DNA of 43,029 nt from the sequence record NC_048192.1, one strand, 5' to 3'. The notes under the pieces are model-generated. The model worked only from the letters and a program-made list of their open reading frames with translations. It made no database searches and had not been told where the DNA came from. Both the position numbers and the translations under genes were made by a program. This stretch comes from Staphylococcus phage vB_SpsS_QT1. Positions 21,543-26,531 of the stretch are shown here, in pieces (position 1 is the stretch's first letter; each line of letters opens with the position of its first letter).

Positions 21543-23003
21543 ATGTTAACAGCTATTGACTATCTTACTAAAAGAGGTTGGAAAATATCGTCTGATCCTC
21601 GCACATACGACGGCTATCCTAAAAACTATGGATACCGCAATTACATTGAAAATGGTATTAACTACGACGAATTTTGCGGTGGTTATCATAGAGCGTTTGA
21701 CGTGTATTCTAACGCAACAAATGACGTGCCTGCAGTAACTAGCGGAACGGTTATTGAAGCAAATGACTACGGTAATTTTGGTGGTACATTCGTCATTAGA
21801 GACGCTAACGATAACGATTGGATATATGGGCATCTACAACGTGGCTCAATGCGATTCGTTGTAGGCGACAAAGTCAATCAAGGTGACATTGTCGGTTCAC
21901 AAGGTAATAGCAACTATTACGACAATCCTATGTCCGCACATTTGCATATTCAATTACGACCTAAAGACGCACTGAAAGACGAAAAATCACAAGTATGTAG
22001 TGGTTTAGCTATGGAGAAGTACGACATTACTAACTTAAATAAAAAGCAAGATAAATCTAAAAATGGGAGCGTGAAAGAGTTGAAACATATCTATTCAAAC
22101 CATATTAAAGGTAACAAGATTACAGCACCAAAACCTAGTATTCAAGGTGTGGTCATCCACAATGATTATGGTAGTATGACACCTAGTCAATACTTACCAT
22201 GGTTATATGCACGTGAGAATAACGGTACACACGTTAACGGTTGGGCTAGTGTTTATGCAAATAGAAACGAAGTGCTTTGGTATCATCCGACAGACTACGT
22301 AGAGTGGCATTGTGGTAATCAATGGGCAAATGCTAACTTAATCGGATTTGAAGTGTGTGAAAGTTATCCAGGACGAATCTCAGACGCATTATTCTTAGAA
22401 AATGAAGAAGCGACATTAAAAGTAGCTGCGGACGTGATGAAGTCGTACGGATTACCAGTTAATCGCAACACTGTACGTCTGCATAACGAATTCTTTGGTA
22501 CTTCTTGTCCACATCGTTCATGGGAGTTGCATGTTGGTAAAGGAGCACCTTACACAACTGCAAATATTAATAGAATGAAAGACTACTTCATCAAACGCAT
22601 CAAACATTATTATGACGGTGGAAAGCTAGAAGTAAGCAAAGAAGCAACTATCAAACAATCTGACGTTAAGCAAGAAGTTAAAAAGCAAGAAGCTAAGCAA
22701 GTTGTTAAAGCGACAGATTGGAAACAAAATAAAGACGGTATTTGGTACAAAGCTGAACACGCTTCATTTACTGTGACAGCGCCAAAGGGAATCATCACAA
22801 GATATAAAGGACCTTGGACAGGTCACCCGCAAGCAGGCGTATTAAGAAAAGGTCAAACGATTAAATATGATGAAGTTCAAAAATTTGATGGTCACGTATG
22901 GGTTTCTTGGGAAACATTTGAGGGAGAAACCGTATATATGCCAGTACGTACTTGGGACGCTAAAACTGGTAAAGTTGGTAAGTTGTGGGGAACTATCAAA
23001 TAA
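21543..23003 (+). CDS. Endolysin: CHAP peptidase - amidase_2 (PGRP-type N-acetylmuramoyl-L-alanine amidase) - SH3b cell-wall binding
   Basis: 486 aa; N-terminal FCGGYHRAFDV and GHL motifs consistent with CHAP; central domain with His/Cys zinc-ligand pattern WHCGN and SCPHRSWELH; C-terminal SH3_5-like KATDWKQNKDGIWY...GKLWGTIK; Staphylococcus phage three-domain architecture. Confidence 0.85.
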   Translation: MLTAIDYLTKRGWKISSDPRTYDGYPKNYGYRNYIENGINYDEFCGGYHRAFDVYSNATNDVPAVTSGTVIEANDYGNFGGTFVIRDANDNDWIYGHLQRGSMRFVVGDKVNQGDIVGSQGNSNYYDNPMSAHLHIQLRPKDALKDEKSQVCSGLAMEKYDITNLNKKQDKSKNGSVKELKHIYSNHIKGNKITAPKPSIQGVVIHNDYGSMTPSQYLPWLYARENNGTHVNGWASVYANRNEVLWYHPTDYVEWHCGNQWANANLIGFEVCESYPGRISDALFLENEEATLKVAADVMKSYGLPVNRNTVRLHNEFFGTSCPHRSWELHVGKGAPYTTANINRMKDYFIKRIKHYYDGGKLEVSKEATIKQSDVKQEVKKQEAKQVVKATDWKQNKDGIWYKAEHASFTVTAPKGIITRYKGPWTGHPQAGVLRKGQTIKYDEVQKFDGHVWVSWETFEGETVYMPVRTWDAKTGKVGKLWGTIK

Positions 23004-23035
23004 AATGTGGTATAATAAACGTCCACGACACGAAA

Positions 23036-23066
23036 GGGTAGCTTATACGGCTACCCTGTTTTTTGT
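23036..23066 (+). terminator. Rho-independent terminator after endolysin
   Basis: GGGTAGC-ttatacg-GCTACCC followed by TGTTTTTTGTG. Confidence 0.65.
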
Positions 23067-23110
23067 GTTATAATACAGATAGATTACTGGTAACCAATCC
23101 GGCTTTATTT

Positions 23111-23146
23111 ACCGCCACCTATACTAGTTGAGGGTGGTGGTTTTTG
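23111..23146 (+). terminator. Second terminator hairpin
   Basis: ACCGCCACC...GGTGGTGGT 9-bp stem with one G-U pair, followed by TTTTTGTGTT. Confidence 0.5.
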
Positions 23147-23219
23147 TGTTCGTATTTATGTTTGGACTTTAAATCTTATTAATATATTTGTAAAATAAGT
23201 AGTGAAAGGGGGATTTAGA

Positions 23220-23534
23220 ATGGGTATATCATACAAAGGTATAGAATATGATAGAAATCTAAGTCAAGCTACAGAAATAGATCCGTATATTTTTTACACC
23301 AATTCTTTGGAAATGAGAACAAGTATCACAGATTTTATGATTAACTTCACACAGCACACGCCTAACGGTTTTGTTGAAAATAGGAATATAATGATGAATC
23401 CTAGTTTGGCAAAACAGTTAAGGAATGCACTTGATGAAGCAATCAATCAATATGAGGAGATTCACGGACCGATAAAAGATATTGATACTCTTCAAAACGA
23501 ATTTGACGAAGTGATTAAAGATGAGTCGAATTAA
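23220..23534 (+). CDS. Accessory (moron) protein, 104 aa, unknown function
   Basis: ATG 23220 six nt after GAAAGGGGGA; sits between lysis module and attP, where temperate staphylococcal phages carry accessory genes. Confidence 0.4.
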   Translation: MGISYKGIEYDRNLSQATEIDPYIFYTNSLEMRTSITDFMINFTQHTPNGFVENRNIMMNPSLAKQLRNALDEAINQYEEIHGPIKDIDTLQNEFDEVIKDESN

Positions 23535-23874
23535 TACCTATCCAATCAATAATCACCCCAAATTTACAGATAAAAAAGAGATAAACTCTTTACCGAGATA
23601 TTACAATTCTTATAATATCAGAAGTGTTGGGAATACTCTTATTTCGGAGGTGGATACAATGTCATTAGATTATATTACACGCCCTGAATTTGAACAGCAT
23701 CAAAAGCACATGGACACAAGATTCGATAATGTAGAGTTGAAAATTGATAACGCCGTAAAAAGTTTGAAAGAAGAAATAAACTTAGAAAAAGTCACATCAA
23801 AACGCTTTTGGATTGGTGTATCGATTCCAGCAATTATAAGTTTGATTAGTATTGTAATAAATTTGTTCTTTTAA
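23521..23874 (+). CDS. Tail-anchored coiled-coil membrane protein (XhlA-like architecture); start either 23521 or more likely ATG 23659 (5 nt after GGAGGTGG)
   Basis: C-terminal RFWIGVSIPAIISLISIVINLFF TM segment preceded by charged coiled coil, resembling the XhlA-like gene at 20867. Confidence 0.4.
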   Translation: MSRINTYPINNHPKFTDKKEINSLPRYYNSYNIRSVGNTLISEVDTMSLDYITRPEFEQHQKHMDTRFDNVELKIDNAVKSLKEEINLEKVTSKRFWIGVSIPAIISLISIVINLFF

Positions 23875-23903
23875 CCACACCCTAACCGGTGTGGTATTTT
23901 TTT
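23874..23903 (+). terminator. Rho-independent terminator
   Basis: CCACACC-ctaacc-GGTGTGG followed by TATTTTTTTA. Confidence 0.55.
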
Positions 23904-23936
23904 ATGCGTAAAATTAAAAAAAGATGAGGAAAAGGG

Positions 23937-23965
23937 TTGTTAATCACGATTAATCGTGATATAAT
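23937..23965 (+). promoter_or_regulatory. Sigma-A type promoter TTGTTA-17 bp-TATAAT whose spacer is a perfect 18-bp palindrome ATCACGATTAATCGTGAT (operator)
   Basis: -35 at 23937-23942, -10 at 23960-23965, palindrome 23943-23960 read directly. Confidence 0.5.
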
Positions 23966-23996
23966 ATATATAGAAAGTTGAAGGGAGGAAAAAAGA

Positions 23997-24092
23997 ATGC
24001 TAGAAACTTTCGAAAGAATAGCAAATATCGTCTTTACAGTAGCATCGACAATAGCGGTCATCAAAGCACTGAAAGACGATAATAAGAAATAA
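23997..24092 (+). CDS. 31-aa membrane peptide with charged tail, Fst/SprG-type toxin-like (MLETFERIANIVFTVASTIAVIKALKDDNKK)
   Basis: Hand-translated; AGGGAGG RBS 8 nt upstream; short polar N-terminus, single TM, KALKDDNKK tail. Confidence 0.4.
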   Translation: MLETFERIANIVFTVASTIAVIKALKDDNKK

Positions 24093-24146
24093 GGTTACGC
24101 CCCAAAAGGGGCAACCTTTCTAATTAAATTCTAGCATTTAAAAACT

Positions 24147-24278
24147 ATGAAAACAACTTCTATAATTTTAATAATACTACTATGGATTAATTTGTTTATT
24201 GGAAATTCATTCACAAGCACAGCATTAACTTTAGCAACAACTTTGGTCATTCTTAAACTATACAAAAAAGGTGATTAA
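24147..24278 (+). CDS. 43-aa hydrophobic two-TM peptide (MKTTSIILIILLWINLFIGNSFTSTALTLATTLVILKLYKKGD)
   Basis: Hand-translated ORF; no obvious SD sequence, so uncertain. Confidence 0.25.
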   Translation: MKTTSIILIILLWINLFIGNSFTSTALTLATTLVILKLYKKGD

Positions 24279-24279
24279 C

Positions 24280-24480
24280 TTGAATTTTGAAAACGTGAAG
24301 CAAGATATAAAAAAGTTATTCAAAGTACAAAATGGCAGTCAAATATCAAAAGCGACTGGTTTGCCATATCAAACTGTGCAAGATTTAAGAAATGAAAAAA
24401 CTAATTTAGATGATGCCAGACTCAGAACGATCGAAAAACTATACAACTACCAAAAACAACTAGAAAAAGAAAACGAATAA
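24280..24480 (+). CDS. Small helix-turn-helix DNA-binding protein (66-69 aa)
   Basis: TTG start 5 nt after AAAGGTGA (alternative GTG 24271); SQISKATGLPYQTVQDLRN resembles an HTH; coiled C-terminus. Confidence 0.45.
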   Translation: MNFENVKQDIKKLFKVQNGSQISKATGLPYQTVQDLRNEKTNLDDARLRTIEKLYNYQKQLEKENE

Positions 24481-24482
24481 GT

Positions 24483-24512
24483 TAACCCCGCCTGCAATAG
24501 GTGGGGTTTTAA
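24483..24512 (+). terminator. Rho-independent terminator
   Basis: AACCCCGCC-tgcaatag-GTGGGGTT followed by TTAAACGTTTTT. Confidence 0.55.
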
Positions 24513-24528
24513 ACGTTTTTAAAACGAG

Positions 24529-24773
24529 GAACGTCTCGGGGACGTTTTTCTATACTTTTAAGATTTCGGGGACGTTTTGAGGACGTTCAGCGTAAAATAC
24601 TACATTCAACGAAAACCAACCAAACACAACAAAACACCGTCATACCAACGTTTTAAGTCACGTGATACAACGGTGTACTAACGAAAAATAACCAAAATAC
24701 GGAAACGGAGGGTGTATGTGTATCCTGTAATAACCAAGGTTTCGGCATTTTGGGGACGTTTCGGGGACGTTGG
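24529..24773. repeat. Putative attP region with integrase arm-type repeats (GGGGACGTT x4 plus GAGGACGTT) flanking an A/C-rich core
   Basis: Repeats at 24537-24545, 24567-24575, 24577-24585, 24752-24760, 24763-24771; inverted AACGTC/GACGTT at 24529-24546; directly abuts the 3' end of the integrase gene. Confidence 0.45.
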
Positions 24774-25820
24774 TTACATACTTTTAATCAAGTTAATAGT
24801 TTTTTGTTTTTCTTCGACCTGAGTCTCTTCTAACAGATGAGAATATACTTCTAACGTTGTTTTGATATTAGCGTGACCAAGCCTTTTAGATATATAGTAA
24901 ATTGATACACCGCCATGCAATAGATAAGAGCAATGTGTGTGTCTTATTGCATGTAGAGTGAAATTTCCTAATTTATTTTCTAAACAGAATTTTTGAAGTA
25001 TTTTTGTTACTGCATTGTTTGTTATTAGAGAATAGCCTGTATTAAACAATTGTCTATTCATGTTAATTGGCATTTCAGTCATTGTTCTTTTTAAAACCTT
25101 CATGTCTTCACTCGGGACATCGACTATACGATCTGATGTTACTGTCTTTGTACCTCTTAAATGAATCGTGTTATTAATGAAATCTAAGTCATCAGTTGTT
25201 AATTTTTGAACTTCACCAAAACGAGCTCCTGTTATAACTAAAATGTAGATAAACAAATATGATTGAGTAGGGACATTTGCCACATAATTTTTCAATTTTT
25301 TATAATCTGCTATACTCATAAATTTGTCTTCTTCTGGCTGGCTAGGCTTTTTCCCTTTTACAATAGCTTTATAAGTAGGGTCTTTATAAATAAGCCCTTC
25401 TTGCATAGCGTCGGATAGCGCTGCTTTAAGACAATTGTGTATTTTTTTAACTGATTCTGTCGCATGATTATCACCATACCATTTTAAGAATTTTCGATAA
25501 AAAATTGTTGTGAAATTATTCAAAGTAATATCGTCTAGGTTTTCAGTATAGAGAAATTTCTTGAATTGTTTTATAGCATTAACGTATGTTTGATAAGCTT
25601 TGTCTGTAATTACGCCCTTTTTGTTGACTTCCATCCACTGTTCATAATAATCGATAAAAGAACTTTTATTGTTGATAATTATACCTTGCATTAGTTTATT
25701 TTTAGCTATTGTTTCAGCTTCAGTGGCTTCACGTTTGGTTTTAAAACCTTTCTTTTTATATCGTTTGCCTTCATAGCCGAAATCGTAATACCACTTATTA
25801 CCATATTTTCTAACACTCAT
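24774..25820 (-). CDS. int: Tyrosine integrase
   Basis: 348 aa; HAIRHTHCSYLL (HxxR) and C-terminal catalytic Tyr region LEVYSHLL; GAGGAG RBS on minus strand. Confidence 0.9.
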   Translation of the reverse strand: MSVRKYGNKWYYDFGYEGKRYKKKGFKTKREATEAETIAKNKLMQGIIINNKSSFIDYYEQWMEVNKKGVITDKAYQTYVNAIKQFKKFLYTENLDDITLNNFTTIFYRKFLKWYGDNHATESVKKIHNCLKAALSDAMQEGLIYKDPTYKAIVKGKKPSQPEEDKFMSIADYKKLKNYVANVPTQSYLFIYILVITGARFGEVQKLTTDDLDFINNTIHLRGTKTVTSDRIVDVPSEDMKVLKRTMTEMPINMNRQLFNTGYSLITNNAVTKILQKFCLENKLGNFTLHAIRHTHCSYLLHGGVSIYYISKRLGHANIKTTLEVYSHLLEETQVEEKQKTINLIKSM

Positions 25821-25877
25821 TTACACCACTCCTCAAAAAAGTAAAAAATAATAAGGGTAGGCGCGCTACCCTGAACG

Positions 25878-26531
25878 TTATTGAATATCTGATTTTTGTA
25901 TTTGCCACTTACCTTTCACTTGATTAAAGTTAGGCATAGCATTAAGTTCTAACGTATATTCTTCTGAGTCTGGTACATCGTAATAAATATATCCATCAGC
26001 GGTATTGTCTTTGTTAAGTTGATGAGAAAAAGTACCATTATCGTCGCCTGAACCGAACCATTCTTCAAAATTTTTGCCATTAACTTTAATCGAAAAATCA
26101 GCGTTATCTACTAACACTTGCTCGTCATTTTCATTTTTAAAACTTAAATTAACTTTTAAAGCAACACCATTGTCAGGTTTTGTCGCATATTCGCCTGATG
26201 TATCAGCGTATTCAACGCTATTCAATGTGTATGTTACGCCATCACCTTTGATAGAGTCCCCAACTTTAAAGGTTTTGTTAACATTTTCTTCACGCTCTTT
26301 TTGTTCTTCTTGAGTGCCATTCAATTCTTCATCAACACCTTTAAAAAATGCTCCAGTTAATGCAAATATCAATACTATACCAATAATTAAAAGAAGCAAA
26401 CAGCCACCGCAACCCCATAACCAACGCTTTTTACTTTTTGAAGACTGCTCTTTTTTGTATGCTTCAAATTGTTGTTGCTGTCTTGCTAGTAACTCTTCGT
26501 TACTAAGTTCTTTCTTTTCTGACATTTTCAT
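25878..26531 (-). CDS. Membrane-anchored protein with extracellular beta-rich domain (DUF4352-like), candidate superinfection-exclusion or lipoprotein-like factor
   Basis: 217 aa; cytoplasmic basic N-terminus, one TM with CGGC motif, Asp/Asn/Gly-rich ectodomain; located between int and repressor. Confidence 0.45.
   Translation of the reverse strand: MKMSEKKELSNEELLARQQQQFEAYKKEQSSKSKKRWLWGCGGCLLLLIIGIVLIFALTGAFFKGVDEELNGTQEEQKEREENVNKTFKVGDSIKGDGVTYTLNSVEYADTSGEYATKPDNGVALKVNLSFKNENDEQVLVDNADFSIKVNGKNFEEWFGSGDDNGTFSHQLNKDNTADGYIYYDVPDSEEYTLELNAMPNFNQVKGKWQIQKSDIQ

Follow-up and report, generated by a model that had tools for sequence, protein, structure and literature searches.

A predicted Aca-type autorepressed operon with two tiny putative membrane peptides and a conserved long-range RNA helix in Staphylococcus phage vB_SpsS_QT1

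INTRODUCTION

What kind of genetic unit lies at positions 23937–24512 of the genome of Staphylococcus phage vB_SpsS_QT1 (record NC_048192.1), where a promoter, two very small open reading frames (ORFs), a gene for a small helix-turn-helix (HTH) protein and a terminator follow one another? We analyzed the whole 43,029-bp genome, hereafter called the window, with positions counted from its first nucleotide and features lying on the plus strand unless stated otherwise. A sequence-only reading of this DNA had described the unit as a self-contained, repressor-controlled cassette, had assigned its 31-aa peptide (here pep1) to the Fst/Ldr/SprG-type membrane toxins and had not recognized the arrangement as a described system. 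In the paper on phage QT1 merely a 650-bp region with three hypothetical genes is mentioned for the endolysin–integrase interval (PMC6950010), and the 43-aa ORF of the cassette (here pep2) corresponds to gp25 of the phage. The cassette is 97–99% identical in the phages 2638A, phiSP119-1, SpT99F3 and several vB_SpsX phages, and in those records it carries unannotated or hypothetical genes only. All parts listed in the sequence-only reading (promoter, palindrome, ribosome-binding site, two peptides, HTH protein and terminator) were found again, and its picture of a self-contained, repressor-controlled cassette holds, with an anti-CRISPR-associated (Aca)-type regulator and an operator in the promoter spacer. 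A hairpin after the first stop codon, the missing Shine–Dalgarno (SD) sequence of pep2 and a long-range inverted repeat had gone unnoticed in it. We conclude that the cassette is probably an Aca-type autorepressed operon with a cargo of two tiny, putatively membrane-inserted peptides, and that a conserved long-range RNA helix is likely to gate its translation.

RESULTS

The small HTH protein belongs to the AcrIIA13–15/Aca11 family

The last gene of the cassette (24280–24480) is an aca-type HTH gene of 66 aa that starts with TTG at 24280, ends with the stop codon at 24478–24480 and has its own SD sequence, GGTGAT, for which we calculated a pairing energy with the 16S rRNA 3' end of −8.9 kcal/mol. 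Taken singly, the protein gave a sub-threshold match to HTH_3 only in Pfam and a match to phrog_1529, a family of which the function is not known, in PHROGs (E 4e-22). A profile search, which the sequence-only reading had proposed as a check on the HTH protein, was run with a profile of 14 family members against PDB sequences, and it matched the AcrIIA15 N-terminal domain (8jfr_B, E 5.7e-15) and Aca11 (9lx2_A, E 1.2e-11), both over nearly the full length. The AlphaFold model (predicted local distance difference test, pLDDT, 90.4) contains four helices at residues 3–16, 19–26, 30–37 and 48–65, the second and third of which make up the HTH, and this is the fold of the AcrIIA13–15 N-terminal domain/Aca11 family. 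When the model was compared with the PDB by Foldseek, the nine best matches were all AcrIIA15 N-terminal domain or Aca11 (template modeling (TM) score 0.75–0.85, root-mean-square deviation (rmsd) 0.8–2.2 Å), and generic Xre-type proteins reached TM scores of about 0.5–0.66. An inverted repeat over the own core promoter, a further mark of the family, is present as the dyad at 23943–23960. We conclude that the 66-aa protein belongs to the AcrIIA13–15 N-terminal/Aca11 family of anti-CRISPR-associated autorepressors. For this family it has been reported that AcrIIA13–15 attach through their common N-terminal domain to an inverted repeat at the promoter of the operon that encodes them (PMC7104187), that the AcrIIA15 dimer binds two inverted repeats, IR1 and IR2, the latter between −35 and −10, and represses a reporter about 10-fold (PMC10901769), and that Aca11 binds a palindrome overlapping its own promoter and represses it (PMC12658196).

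The operator fills the promoter spacer and covaries with the regulator

The near-consensus promoter and the perfect palindrome in its spacer could both be confirmed. The sigma-A promoter (23937–23965) consists of a −35 box TTGTTA at 23937–23942, a 17-nt spacer and a −10 box TATAAT at 23960–23965; it scores 10/12 and carries an extended −10 TG at 23957–23958 (TGa-TATAAT). Nearly all aligned representatives of the family have the promoter at the same place with a 17-nt spacer; in locus L017 the spacer is 18 nt long (loci of our collection are numbered with the prefix L or P). The spacer is filled by the operator, a perfect 18-bp dyad ATCACGATTAATCGTGAT at 23943–23960, which can be written as ATCACGAT-TA-ATCGTGAT. 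This palindrome occurs once in the 43-kb window, where about 0.03 matches with at most three mismatches would be expected by chance, and its ACG-N6-CGT core stands at the same place of the spacer in all intact loci. In the AcrIIA15 promoter, TTGACT-TATGACGAACGTCATAA-TATAAT, IR2 likewise fills the 17-nt spacer (PMC10901769), so that its geometry equals that of the window promoter, TTGTTA-ATCACGATTAATCGTGA-TATAAT. The two promoters differ in that the window has a single inverted repeat and no IR1 upstream of the −35 box, in the operator half-site (ATCACG in the window, TATGAC for AcrIIA15) and in that the base-contacting residue K31 of AcrIIA15 is an Asp in the HTH protein of the window.

We compared operators and recognition helices across 15 loci by tracking residues Y/R30 and Q/T34, which align with Q26 (a base contact) and S30 of AcrIIA15 as well as with Q28 and S32 of Aca11, both predicted DNA contacts. 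All nine loci with the recognition helix PYQTVQ have a T before CACG in the left half-site, among them L054, whose peptides are unrelated. The six loci with PRQTVT all have a G before YACG on the left and, mirroring it in the right half-site, a C. Locus L004 has the peptide subtype of L008 and L009, yet it carries the other HTH class together with the other operator, and the same holds for L015 relative to the window, from which it follows that the association of operator and helix does not simply follow the peptide type. Since the behavior of the family is proven for the AcrIIA15 N-terminal domain and for Aca11, and because the operator covaries with residues of the recognition helix, the palindrome, which had been proposed as the site of a dimeric regulator, is very probably bound by a dimer of the cassette's own HTH protein.

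The cassette shares its scaffold with anti-CRISPR operons

An alignment of the HTH protein was searched against genomes, viral contigs and metagenomes, which yielded about 75 loci, and more were added via two peptide relatives. Modules of the window type were found in about 50 distinct sequences that cluster to 15 representatives. The order promoter, peptide, hairpin, peptide and HTH recurs in these approximately 50 loci, which come from at least eight species of staphylococci and their phages, at 40–60% protein divergence, and thus the cassette is more than a chance arrangement. The hosts include S. pseudintermedius, S. cornubiensis, S. felis, S. chromogenes, S. schweitzeri, S. borealis, S. 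caeli and S. marylandisciuri, and the module is also present in the S. aureus phages phiMR11, 96, vB_Sau_IS1 and others, mostly directly 3' of the endolysin gene. Phage phiSP119-2 holds a diverged copy with 55% peptide identity and the parts in the same order. Regarding all loci recruited with the HTH protein, nearly every one has one or two tiny hydrophobic peptides 5' of the HTH gene, and these peptides fall into at least five sequence-unrelated families.

In several sister loci the same scaffold carries a Cas9-inhibitor-type domain. Loci L023 and L024 encode the same pep1 and pep2 followed by a protein of 160–196 aa with the HTH at its N-terminus and AcrIIA13 at its C-terminus (E 1.5e-12), and in L060–L074 a 195-aa HTH-AcrIIA13-like protein follows another pair of tiny membrane peptides. 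The upstream terminator of the window also precedes locus L084 (13227–14261), which has an exact AcrIIA15-type promoter with IR1 and IR2 and encodes a soluble 157-aa protein of the Phage_Gp111 family together with a 185-aa HTH-AcrIIA13-like fusion. The 'GF5 gene 1' that served as a search seed for Watters et al. is an unconfirmed candidate for a Gp111-type protein as in L084. The arrangement, which the sequence-only reading had not recognized as a described system, is thus a described one after all: acr-aca operons have its regulatory scaffold, and close sister loci fuse an AcrIIA13 domain to the same HTH. In the window cassette itself we found no anti-CRISPR (Acr) domain, as the HTH gene stops after 66 codons with the terminator behind it, and the peptides match no known family; an AcrIIA13-like domain is confined to sister loci (L023, L024, L060–L074). 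For this reason we do not class the cassette as an anti-CRISPR locus.

Compared with the acrIIA13/14/15 operons of Staphylococcus (Watters et al. 2020, PMC7104187; PMC10901769), the window has an HTH homologous in sequence and fold, a strong sigma-70-type promoter with an inverted repeat filling the −35/−10 spacer and the regulator gene in last position, whereas its HTH stands alone without a Cas9-inhibitor domain. In the acrIIA13–15 literature searched we found no description of small membrane peptides or of a long-range RNA helix. The second close relative, Aca11 of a Streptococcus prophage (PMC12658196; PDB 9lx2), is like the window protein a stand-alone dimeric HTH of about 65–70 aa, with 32% identity to the window protein, TM scores of 0.82–0.85 and an rmsd of 0.8 Å to its model. 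Unlike the window regulator, which is preceded by putative membrane peptides, Aca11 sits 3' of the soluble AcrIIA25.1 and controls a neighboring operon too, whereas the window palindrome is unique in the phage; the inverted repeat of Aca11 is 22 bp long and AT-rich, compared to an 18-bp dyad in the window.

Two small ORFs evolve as protein-coding genes

The 31-aa ORF with a very strong AGGGAGG ribosome-binding site and the 43-aa ORF with two hydrophobic segments were both recovered as previously described. The first, pep1 (MLETFERIANIVFTVASTIAVIKALKDDNKK, 23997–24092), begins with a short polar stretch, continues as a single, moderately hydrophobic helix and ends in a charged tail; its SD sequence AGGGAGG (23982–23988) pairs with the 16S rRNA 3' end at −15.3 kcal/mol and is unpaired in the minimum free energy (MFE) structure of the mRNA. 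The second, pep2 (24147–24278), is preceded by no SD sequence, the pairing energy at its start being +1.3 kcal/mol. For pep1 the pooled ratio of nonsynonymous to synonymous differences (pN/pS) was 0.56 in its own frame and 0.78 and 1.35 in the other two, for pep2 it was 0.49, and the off-frame values for the two peptides ranged from 0.78 to 1.68; between the window and L023, pep2 showed a pN of 0.05 and a pS of 0.53. From in-frame ratios below the off-frame values we conclude that purifying selection acts on pep1 and pep2 solely in their own reading frames and that both are real genes. Synonymous divergence is lower in pep1 (0.465) than in pep2 (0.617).

Neither peptide had a meaningful family match in Pfam, NCBIfam, PHROGs or PADLOC (best YhfC, E 0.03), and 11 members of each of the two peptide families gave no match in Pfam. 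Among 1.84 billion representative proteins, pep1 had three relatives, all orthologues, and a query with concatenated pep1 and pep2 had five close relatives only. A full-text literature search returned no paper that prints the pep1 or pep2 sequence or treats small membrane proteins in these operons. The best 18-residue Kyte–Doolittle window of pep1 scores 1.93 (1.5–1.9 in the family), and insertion of both peptides into the membrane is predicted from such hydrophobic segments. A peptide of the phenol-soluble modulin (PSM)/delta-toxin type was considered and rejected, as the whole-peptide hydrophobic moment of pep1 is 0.17 at a Kyte–Doolittle value of 1.9, compared to 0.44–0.60 and 0.75–0.85, respectively, for delta-toxin and PSM-alpha3. 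Homology of pep1 to the first peptides of the other families was likewise rejected (hhalign probability 7%), so that these peptides are analogous and not demonstrably homologous.

Some loci carry altered versions of pep1. In P0003, P0004 and P0005 (S. pseudintermedius and a Logan assembly) natural frameshifts occur near the KDDNKK tail, and the frames run into the hairpin region to give products of 42–60 aa; the charged tail is thus not strictly conserved. In L007 (3192–3868, S. marylandisciuri) pep1 is frameshifted and about 560 nt of repeat-rich DNA, with two long direct repeats and GGGGCCCACCCCAAC-type units, lie between the hairpin that follows pep1 and the sequence upstream of pep2 that pairs with the pep1 start (the anti-start, see below), while pep2, the anti-start and the HTH gene are intact.

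A long-range RNA helix joins the pep1 start codon to a site upstream of pep2

Searching the window with a repeat finder, we observed that AATGCTAGAA, which includes the start codon of pep1, has a perfect complement, TTCTAGCATT, at 24129–24138. The 5' arm of the resulting helix (GAAUGCUAGAA, 23995–24005) contains the pep1 start codon and the 3' arm, the anti-start (UUCUAGCAUUU, 24129–24139), ends about 7–9 nt before the AUG of pep2. Over 14 loci the helix has 10–11 bp with 94% of the cells paired and three pairs with compensatory changes; its covariation score of 0.274 compares with 0.13 for shuffles, none of 500 reaching it, and with at most 0.07 when the partners were slid against each other. 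Among the 14 representatives the covarying pairs are formed by the first base of the start codon (A/G) with T/C, the first base of codon 2 (C/T) with G/A, and the base 5' of the start codon (A/C/G) with T/G/C. RNAalifold recovered the helix independently as a consensus structure, and it was part of the MFE structure in 16 of 16 RNAs folded, with mean pair probabilities of 0.62–1.0 (0.97 for the window).

The helix encloses a compact domain. For the predicted transcript from about 23972 to the start of pep2 we calculated −47.6 kcal/mol (z = −5.5), and the fold consists of three helices that leave the SD sequence of pep1 free: the long-range helix, an ORF-internal stem (AUCGUCUUU...AAAGACGAU with inner pairs, an inverted repeat at 24026–24081) that folds the pep1 coding region and is found in the MFE structure of every family member folded, and a hairpin over and after the pep1 stop codon (24091–24118, −15.3 kcal/mol, z = −4.0). 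The diverged S. schweitzeri version adopts the same fold with z = −3.8. A hairpin occupies the position after the first cistron in every peptide family, the sequences being unrelated. We rejected the hairpin after pep1 as an intrinsic terminator because it has no conserved or proper U-tract on either strand. Neither Rfam 15 nor the literature searched contained a counterpart of the long-range helix.

Equivalent helices of 13, 13 and 7–11 nt are present in three other, unrelated peptide families that are associated with this regulator. In L054 (GAATGAACCGAAT with ATTCGGTTCATTC) and in the L060 group (GAAATGAACCGAA with TTCGGTTCATTTC) the anti-start lies 8–11 nt before the HTH start, and in L010/L013 (GAAATGAGGA(T) with (A)TCCTCATTTC) and L075 (AGTGGTG with CACCACT) it lies 5–6 nt before the second cistron. 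The cistron behind the anti-start is in all cases the sole one without an SD sequence (pairing energies of −2.9 to +2.1 kcal/mol), while the other cistrons of these loci reach −8.9 kcal/mol or less, except for the HTH gene of L075 with −5.4 kcal/mol. In families with an SD sequence on every cistron (L056, L059, L077, L084) we found no complement longer than 6 nt. A perfect complement of at least 10 nt would arise by chance in about 1% of comparable cases, a figure that does not yet require the observed position.

A covarying inverted repeat could formally also reflect symmetry at the DNA level, in which case the arms would be paired protein-binding sites or a recombination substrate and not an RNA helix. 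We consider this highly improbable: in four unrelated families the arms always coincide with the start codon of cistron 1 and a site just 5' of an SD-less start, G·U wobble is tolerated on the plus strand, the RNA enclosed by the helix is unusually stable, and across the families the arm sequences have nothing in common beyond the start codon. As for RNA precedents, long-distance pairing couples the coat and replicase cistrons of phage MS2, and gene 38 of phage T4 has a split ribosome-binding site. In these systems, as would be the case here, structure decides on the use of a downstream start and ties it to an upstream site. In contrast to them, the upstream arm in the window is the start codon of cistron 1, the downstream cistron lacks an SD sequence entirely, and the same design is seen in four DNA-phage peptide families that are unrelated to one another.

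Comparison with type I toxin–antitoxin modules

In the mRNAs of type I toxins the start codon is typically sequestered by long-range pairing, and we considered the helix together with the assignment of pep1 to the Fst/Ldr/SprG type. If such an assignment were correct, pep1 would be a membrane toxin with an mRNA kept inert by the fold-back helix, a minus-strand cis-antisense RNA would be the antitoxin, and the HTH protein would add transcriptional control. The general shape of pep1 (31 aa, hydrophobic core, charged tail) is toxin-like, and its start codon lies in a covarying 10–11-bp long-range helix with the SD sequence unpaired, as blocked initiation would have it. However, no type I toxin family matched pep1: Fst, the holin-like toxins (SprG/TxpA) and other type I toxins were absent at E values up to 10 when Pfam was scanned with 11 members of the pep1 family and NCBIfam, PHROGs and PADLOC with the window peptide. 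The hydrophobic core of pep1 is also weaker than those of Fst, SprG1 and PepA1. No antitoxin RNA of Rfam reached the gathering score in the window and three divergent loci, the best being rli48 with 29.9 bits at a cut-off of 100. The family assignment and the type I search that had been suggested for it thus yielded no support. On the minus strand, weak Rfam matches at 23996–24140 to Listeria rli48 (29.9 bits, gathering score 100, E 0.006), SprD and sau-41 were seen, which over the hairpin probably reflect structure-driven chance.

A candidate antisense promoter is present on the minus strand at 24128–24156 (TTGTTT at 24156–24151, 17 nt, TGc-TAGAAT with the −10 box at 24133–24128). Read on this strand the anti-start is TGcTAGAAT, an extended −10, and TTGTTT overlaps codons 2–4 of pep2. 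Both boxes and their 17-nt spacing are invariant in 14 of 14 representatives, and the invariant ATT of the motif is only partly explained by the helix; the spacing, on the other hand, is also set by the constant distance from anti-start to AUG together with pep2 codons 2–4, and the other three helix families lack an antisense −10. An RNA from this promoter would start near 24121 with the hairpin after pep1 and run antisense over the 3' part of the pep1 frame; it is predicted to fold stably (z = −6.1), and no terminator for it is conserved. S. aureus SprG/SprF pairs overlap at their 3' ends, a layout that the overlap with pep1 resembles (PMC6393307). With the Firmicutes systems Fst/RNAII, SprG/SprF, SprA1 and TxpA/RatA the window shares a tiny hydrophobic peptide, a folded mRNA masking the translation start, a prophage location and possibly a convergent antisense promoter. 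It differs from them in that pep1 has no sequence membership and no known antitoxin RNA is present, in that pep1 opens an operon of three genes under a protein repressor (in one other family, that of L010, the first cistron is not even hydrophobic), and in that the helix masks the start codon and not the SD sequence, its partner preceding another cistron. Weighing both sides, we judge a type I module to be quite unlikely; pep1 might nevertheless act on the membrane in a toxin-like way.

Terminators and neighboring genes

An intrinsic terminator upstream of the cassette (23874–23905, a stem at 23874–23895 and a T run, found by terminator scan) folds with −13.6 kcal/mol (z = −4.3) and insulates the cassette from the preceding genes. 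The same terminator precedes differing cargo in L004 and L084. Its shared stem CACACCCT(A/C)A...GGTGTGG is located at 23876–23894 in the window, at about 1165–1185 in L004 and at about 13100–13120 in L084, and the cassettes behind it differ in cargo and in operators, which suggests a recombination boundary or a hot spot for accessory genes 3' of the lysis genes. The terminator said to close the unit was found at 24484–24520, with a hairpin at 24484–24508 (−18 kcal/mol) followed by the U-rich tail UUUUAAACGUUUUU; it is identical in L004, and with four T in eight positions its tail was too poor in T for the consensus scan to detect it. Two promoter-like sites within the cassette, at 24137–24166 on the plus strand and at 24198–24171 on the minus strand, are not kept in other loci and were treated as chance.

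The cassette had been placed between endolysin and attP. Two further genes separate it from the endolysin gene (21543–23003). These two overlapping genes (23202–23874) encode a 110-aa DUF3467 protein (phrog_7919) and a 117-aa protein with a C-terminal hydrophobic helix (phrog_7090), and they have their own terminator at 23874–23895. The pair is missing at this position in 2638A and phiSP119-1 and therefore represents a separate insert. On the other side, four copies of a GGGGACGTT(T)-containing repeat (24522–24587 and 24747–24771) flank a non-coding stretch beside the integrase gene (24774–25820, minus strand) and are probably integrase arm-type sites of attP. No tRNA or tRNA fragment was found at the terminator or attP when 23000–26000 was scanned with ARAGORN. 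In the version of the cassette found in S. aureus and S. schweitzeri phages, one or two extra small genes lie between the HTH gene and the integrase gene (L008, 4203–4403; L083, 3064–3420), and these, for example a 66-aa protein starting with MFVTKEEFKNL, had no Pfam match. In L012 (1063–1883, S. schweitzeri) two paralogous small HTH genes of the regulator family stand in tandem, the first preceded by a 41-aa hydrophobic peptide and the second without a recognizable peptide partner.

DISCUSSION

The mechanism that we propose builds on the homology and fold of the regulator, the geometry and covariation of its operator, the coding status of the peptides and the existence and covariation of the helix, all of which are established here. 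We regard it as probable that this temperate staphylococcal phage carries the cassette as an accessory operon of the self-repressing Aca type, built on the acrIIA13–15 scaffold, with a cargo of two putative membrane peptides and an RNA gate. The sigma-A promoter would fire when the repressor is absent, for example right after entry of the DNA, and one mRNA would encode pep1, pep2 and the 66-aa HTH protein. A dimer of the latter on the spacer dyad would then shut the promoter, so that a pulse would be followed by a low steady level. After about 140 nt have been transcribed, the helix could pair the pep1 start codon with the anti-start 9 nt before the SD-less start of pep2 and close the pep1 cistron into the compact three-helix domain; in this position it would both mask the first start codon and occupy the 30S site for the SD-less cistron. 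The version that we prefer as the most likely one is coupled unmasking, in which both cistrons are silent in the closed form and are held open as long as ribosomes initiate on pep1; when initiation lapses, the helix would close and the mRNA would fall silent. Alternatively, the closed domain might place the strong SD sequence of pep1 beside the SD-less AUG of pep2 and hand it over. The summed single-stranded flanks, 7 nt in L075, 10 nt in L010, 13–15 nt in the window, 14 nt in L060 and 20 nt in L054, fit such a hand-over in L075 and L010 and fit it poorly in the window, L060 and L054. Either way, peptide synthesis would be brief, limited and coupled, which fits membrane-acting products that are harmful in excess.

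Several observations weigh against the proposal as a whole. With flanks between 7 and 20 nt, no single simple geometry accounts for all loci, and two loci have a C·A mismatch inside the helix. Promoter activity, repression and effects on translation are predictions from the DNA, as are the membrane insertion and the putative biological role of the peptides, and the hydrophobic stretch of pep1 (Kyte–Doolittle 1.5–1.9) is marginal for a transmembrane helix. Since the window has no Acr domain, its suggested link to anti-defense is one of guilt by association. The S. aureus phages also carry the peptide-plus-HTH version. S. aureus rarely has CRISPR, and retention of this version in its phages without an inhibitor domain argues for a CRISPR-independent role of the peptides. 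Favored by their association, a dose-limited membrane activity in anti-defense or in superinfection exclusion would be the leading candidates for that role.

Finally, pep1 is frameshifted or truncated while pep2 is intact in L007, L014 and P0003–P0005, P0003–P0005 being variants frameshifted in the C-terminal part, and pep1 may thus be dispensable or mainly regulatory. In the latter case it would be a leader ORF, translation of which melts the helix and licenses the SD-less cistron, with pep2, or elsewhere the repressor, as the actual cargo. Such a role would agree with the helix always joining the start of cistron 1 to the SD-less cistron, whatever cistron 1 encodes, with the 30–33-aa first ORF of L010, L013 and L075, which is not hydrophobic, and with the partial coincidence of conserved pep1 residues (IVF, KDD) with the ORF-internal RNA stem. 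It is harder to reconcile with the hydrophobic-helix character, fixed length and conservative substitutions that pep1 has kept over large divergence, and with its pN/pS below the off-frame values. Moreover, cistron 1 is transmembrane-like in three of the four helix families and also in the helix-less L056/L059 family, which suggests a protein function. We therefore think that a mainly regulatory pep1 is rather unlikely, and we return to the operon with two peptide products as the reading that we favor.

A bolder extension, which we put forward tentatively and consider doubtful, is that the helix is a new recurrent translational switch, working by coupled unmasking or by hand-over of the SD sequence, that together with the Aca repressor times a short burst of tiny membrane peptides, and that these peptides are a new anti-defense or exclusion class and the ancestral core of the AcrIIA13–15 operons, to which inhibitor domains were fused later.

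Aca-type repressors serve as flags for finding new anti-defense genes, and the loci that we recovered by similarity to the staphylococcal AcrIIA13–15/Aca11-like regulator suggest that, as a rule, pairs of very small putative membrane peptides accompany it. This cargo comprises at least five unrelated families, which are uncharacterized and have mostly been missed by annotation. Recent evidence indicates that acr-aca operons are also regulated at the RNA level (PMC13551039). To this the long-range helix adds covariation-supported, putative post-transcriptional control on top of an Aca-repressed promoter, in which the first start codon is tied to the sole cistron without an SD sequence. If the peptides act on the membrane, they would represent a new functional class, possibly blocking DNA entry, countering membrane-acting effectors of abortive infection or tuning lysis, and this class would then be present in therapy-candidate phages of S. 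aureus and S. pseudintermedius.

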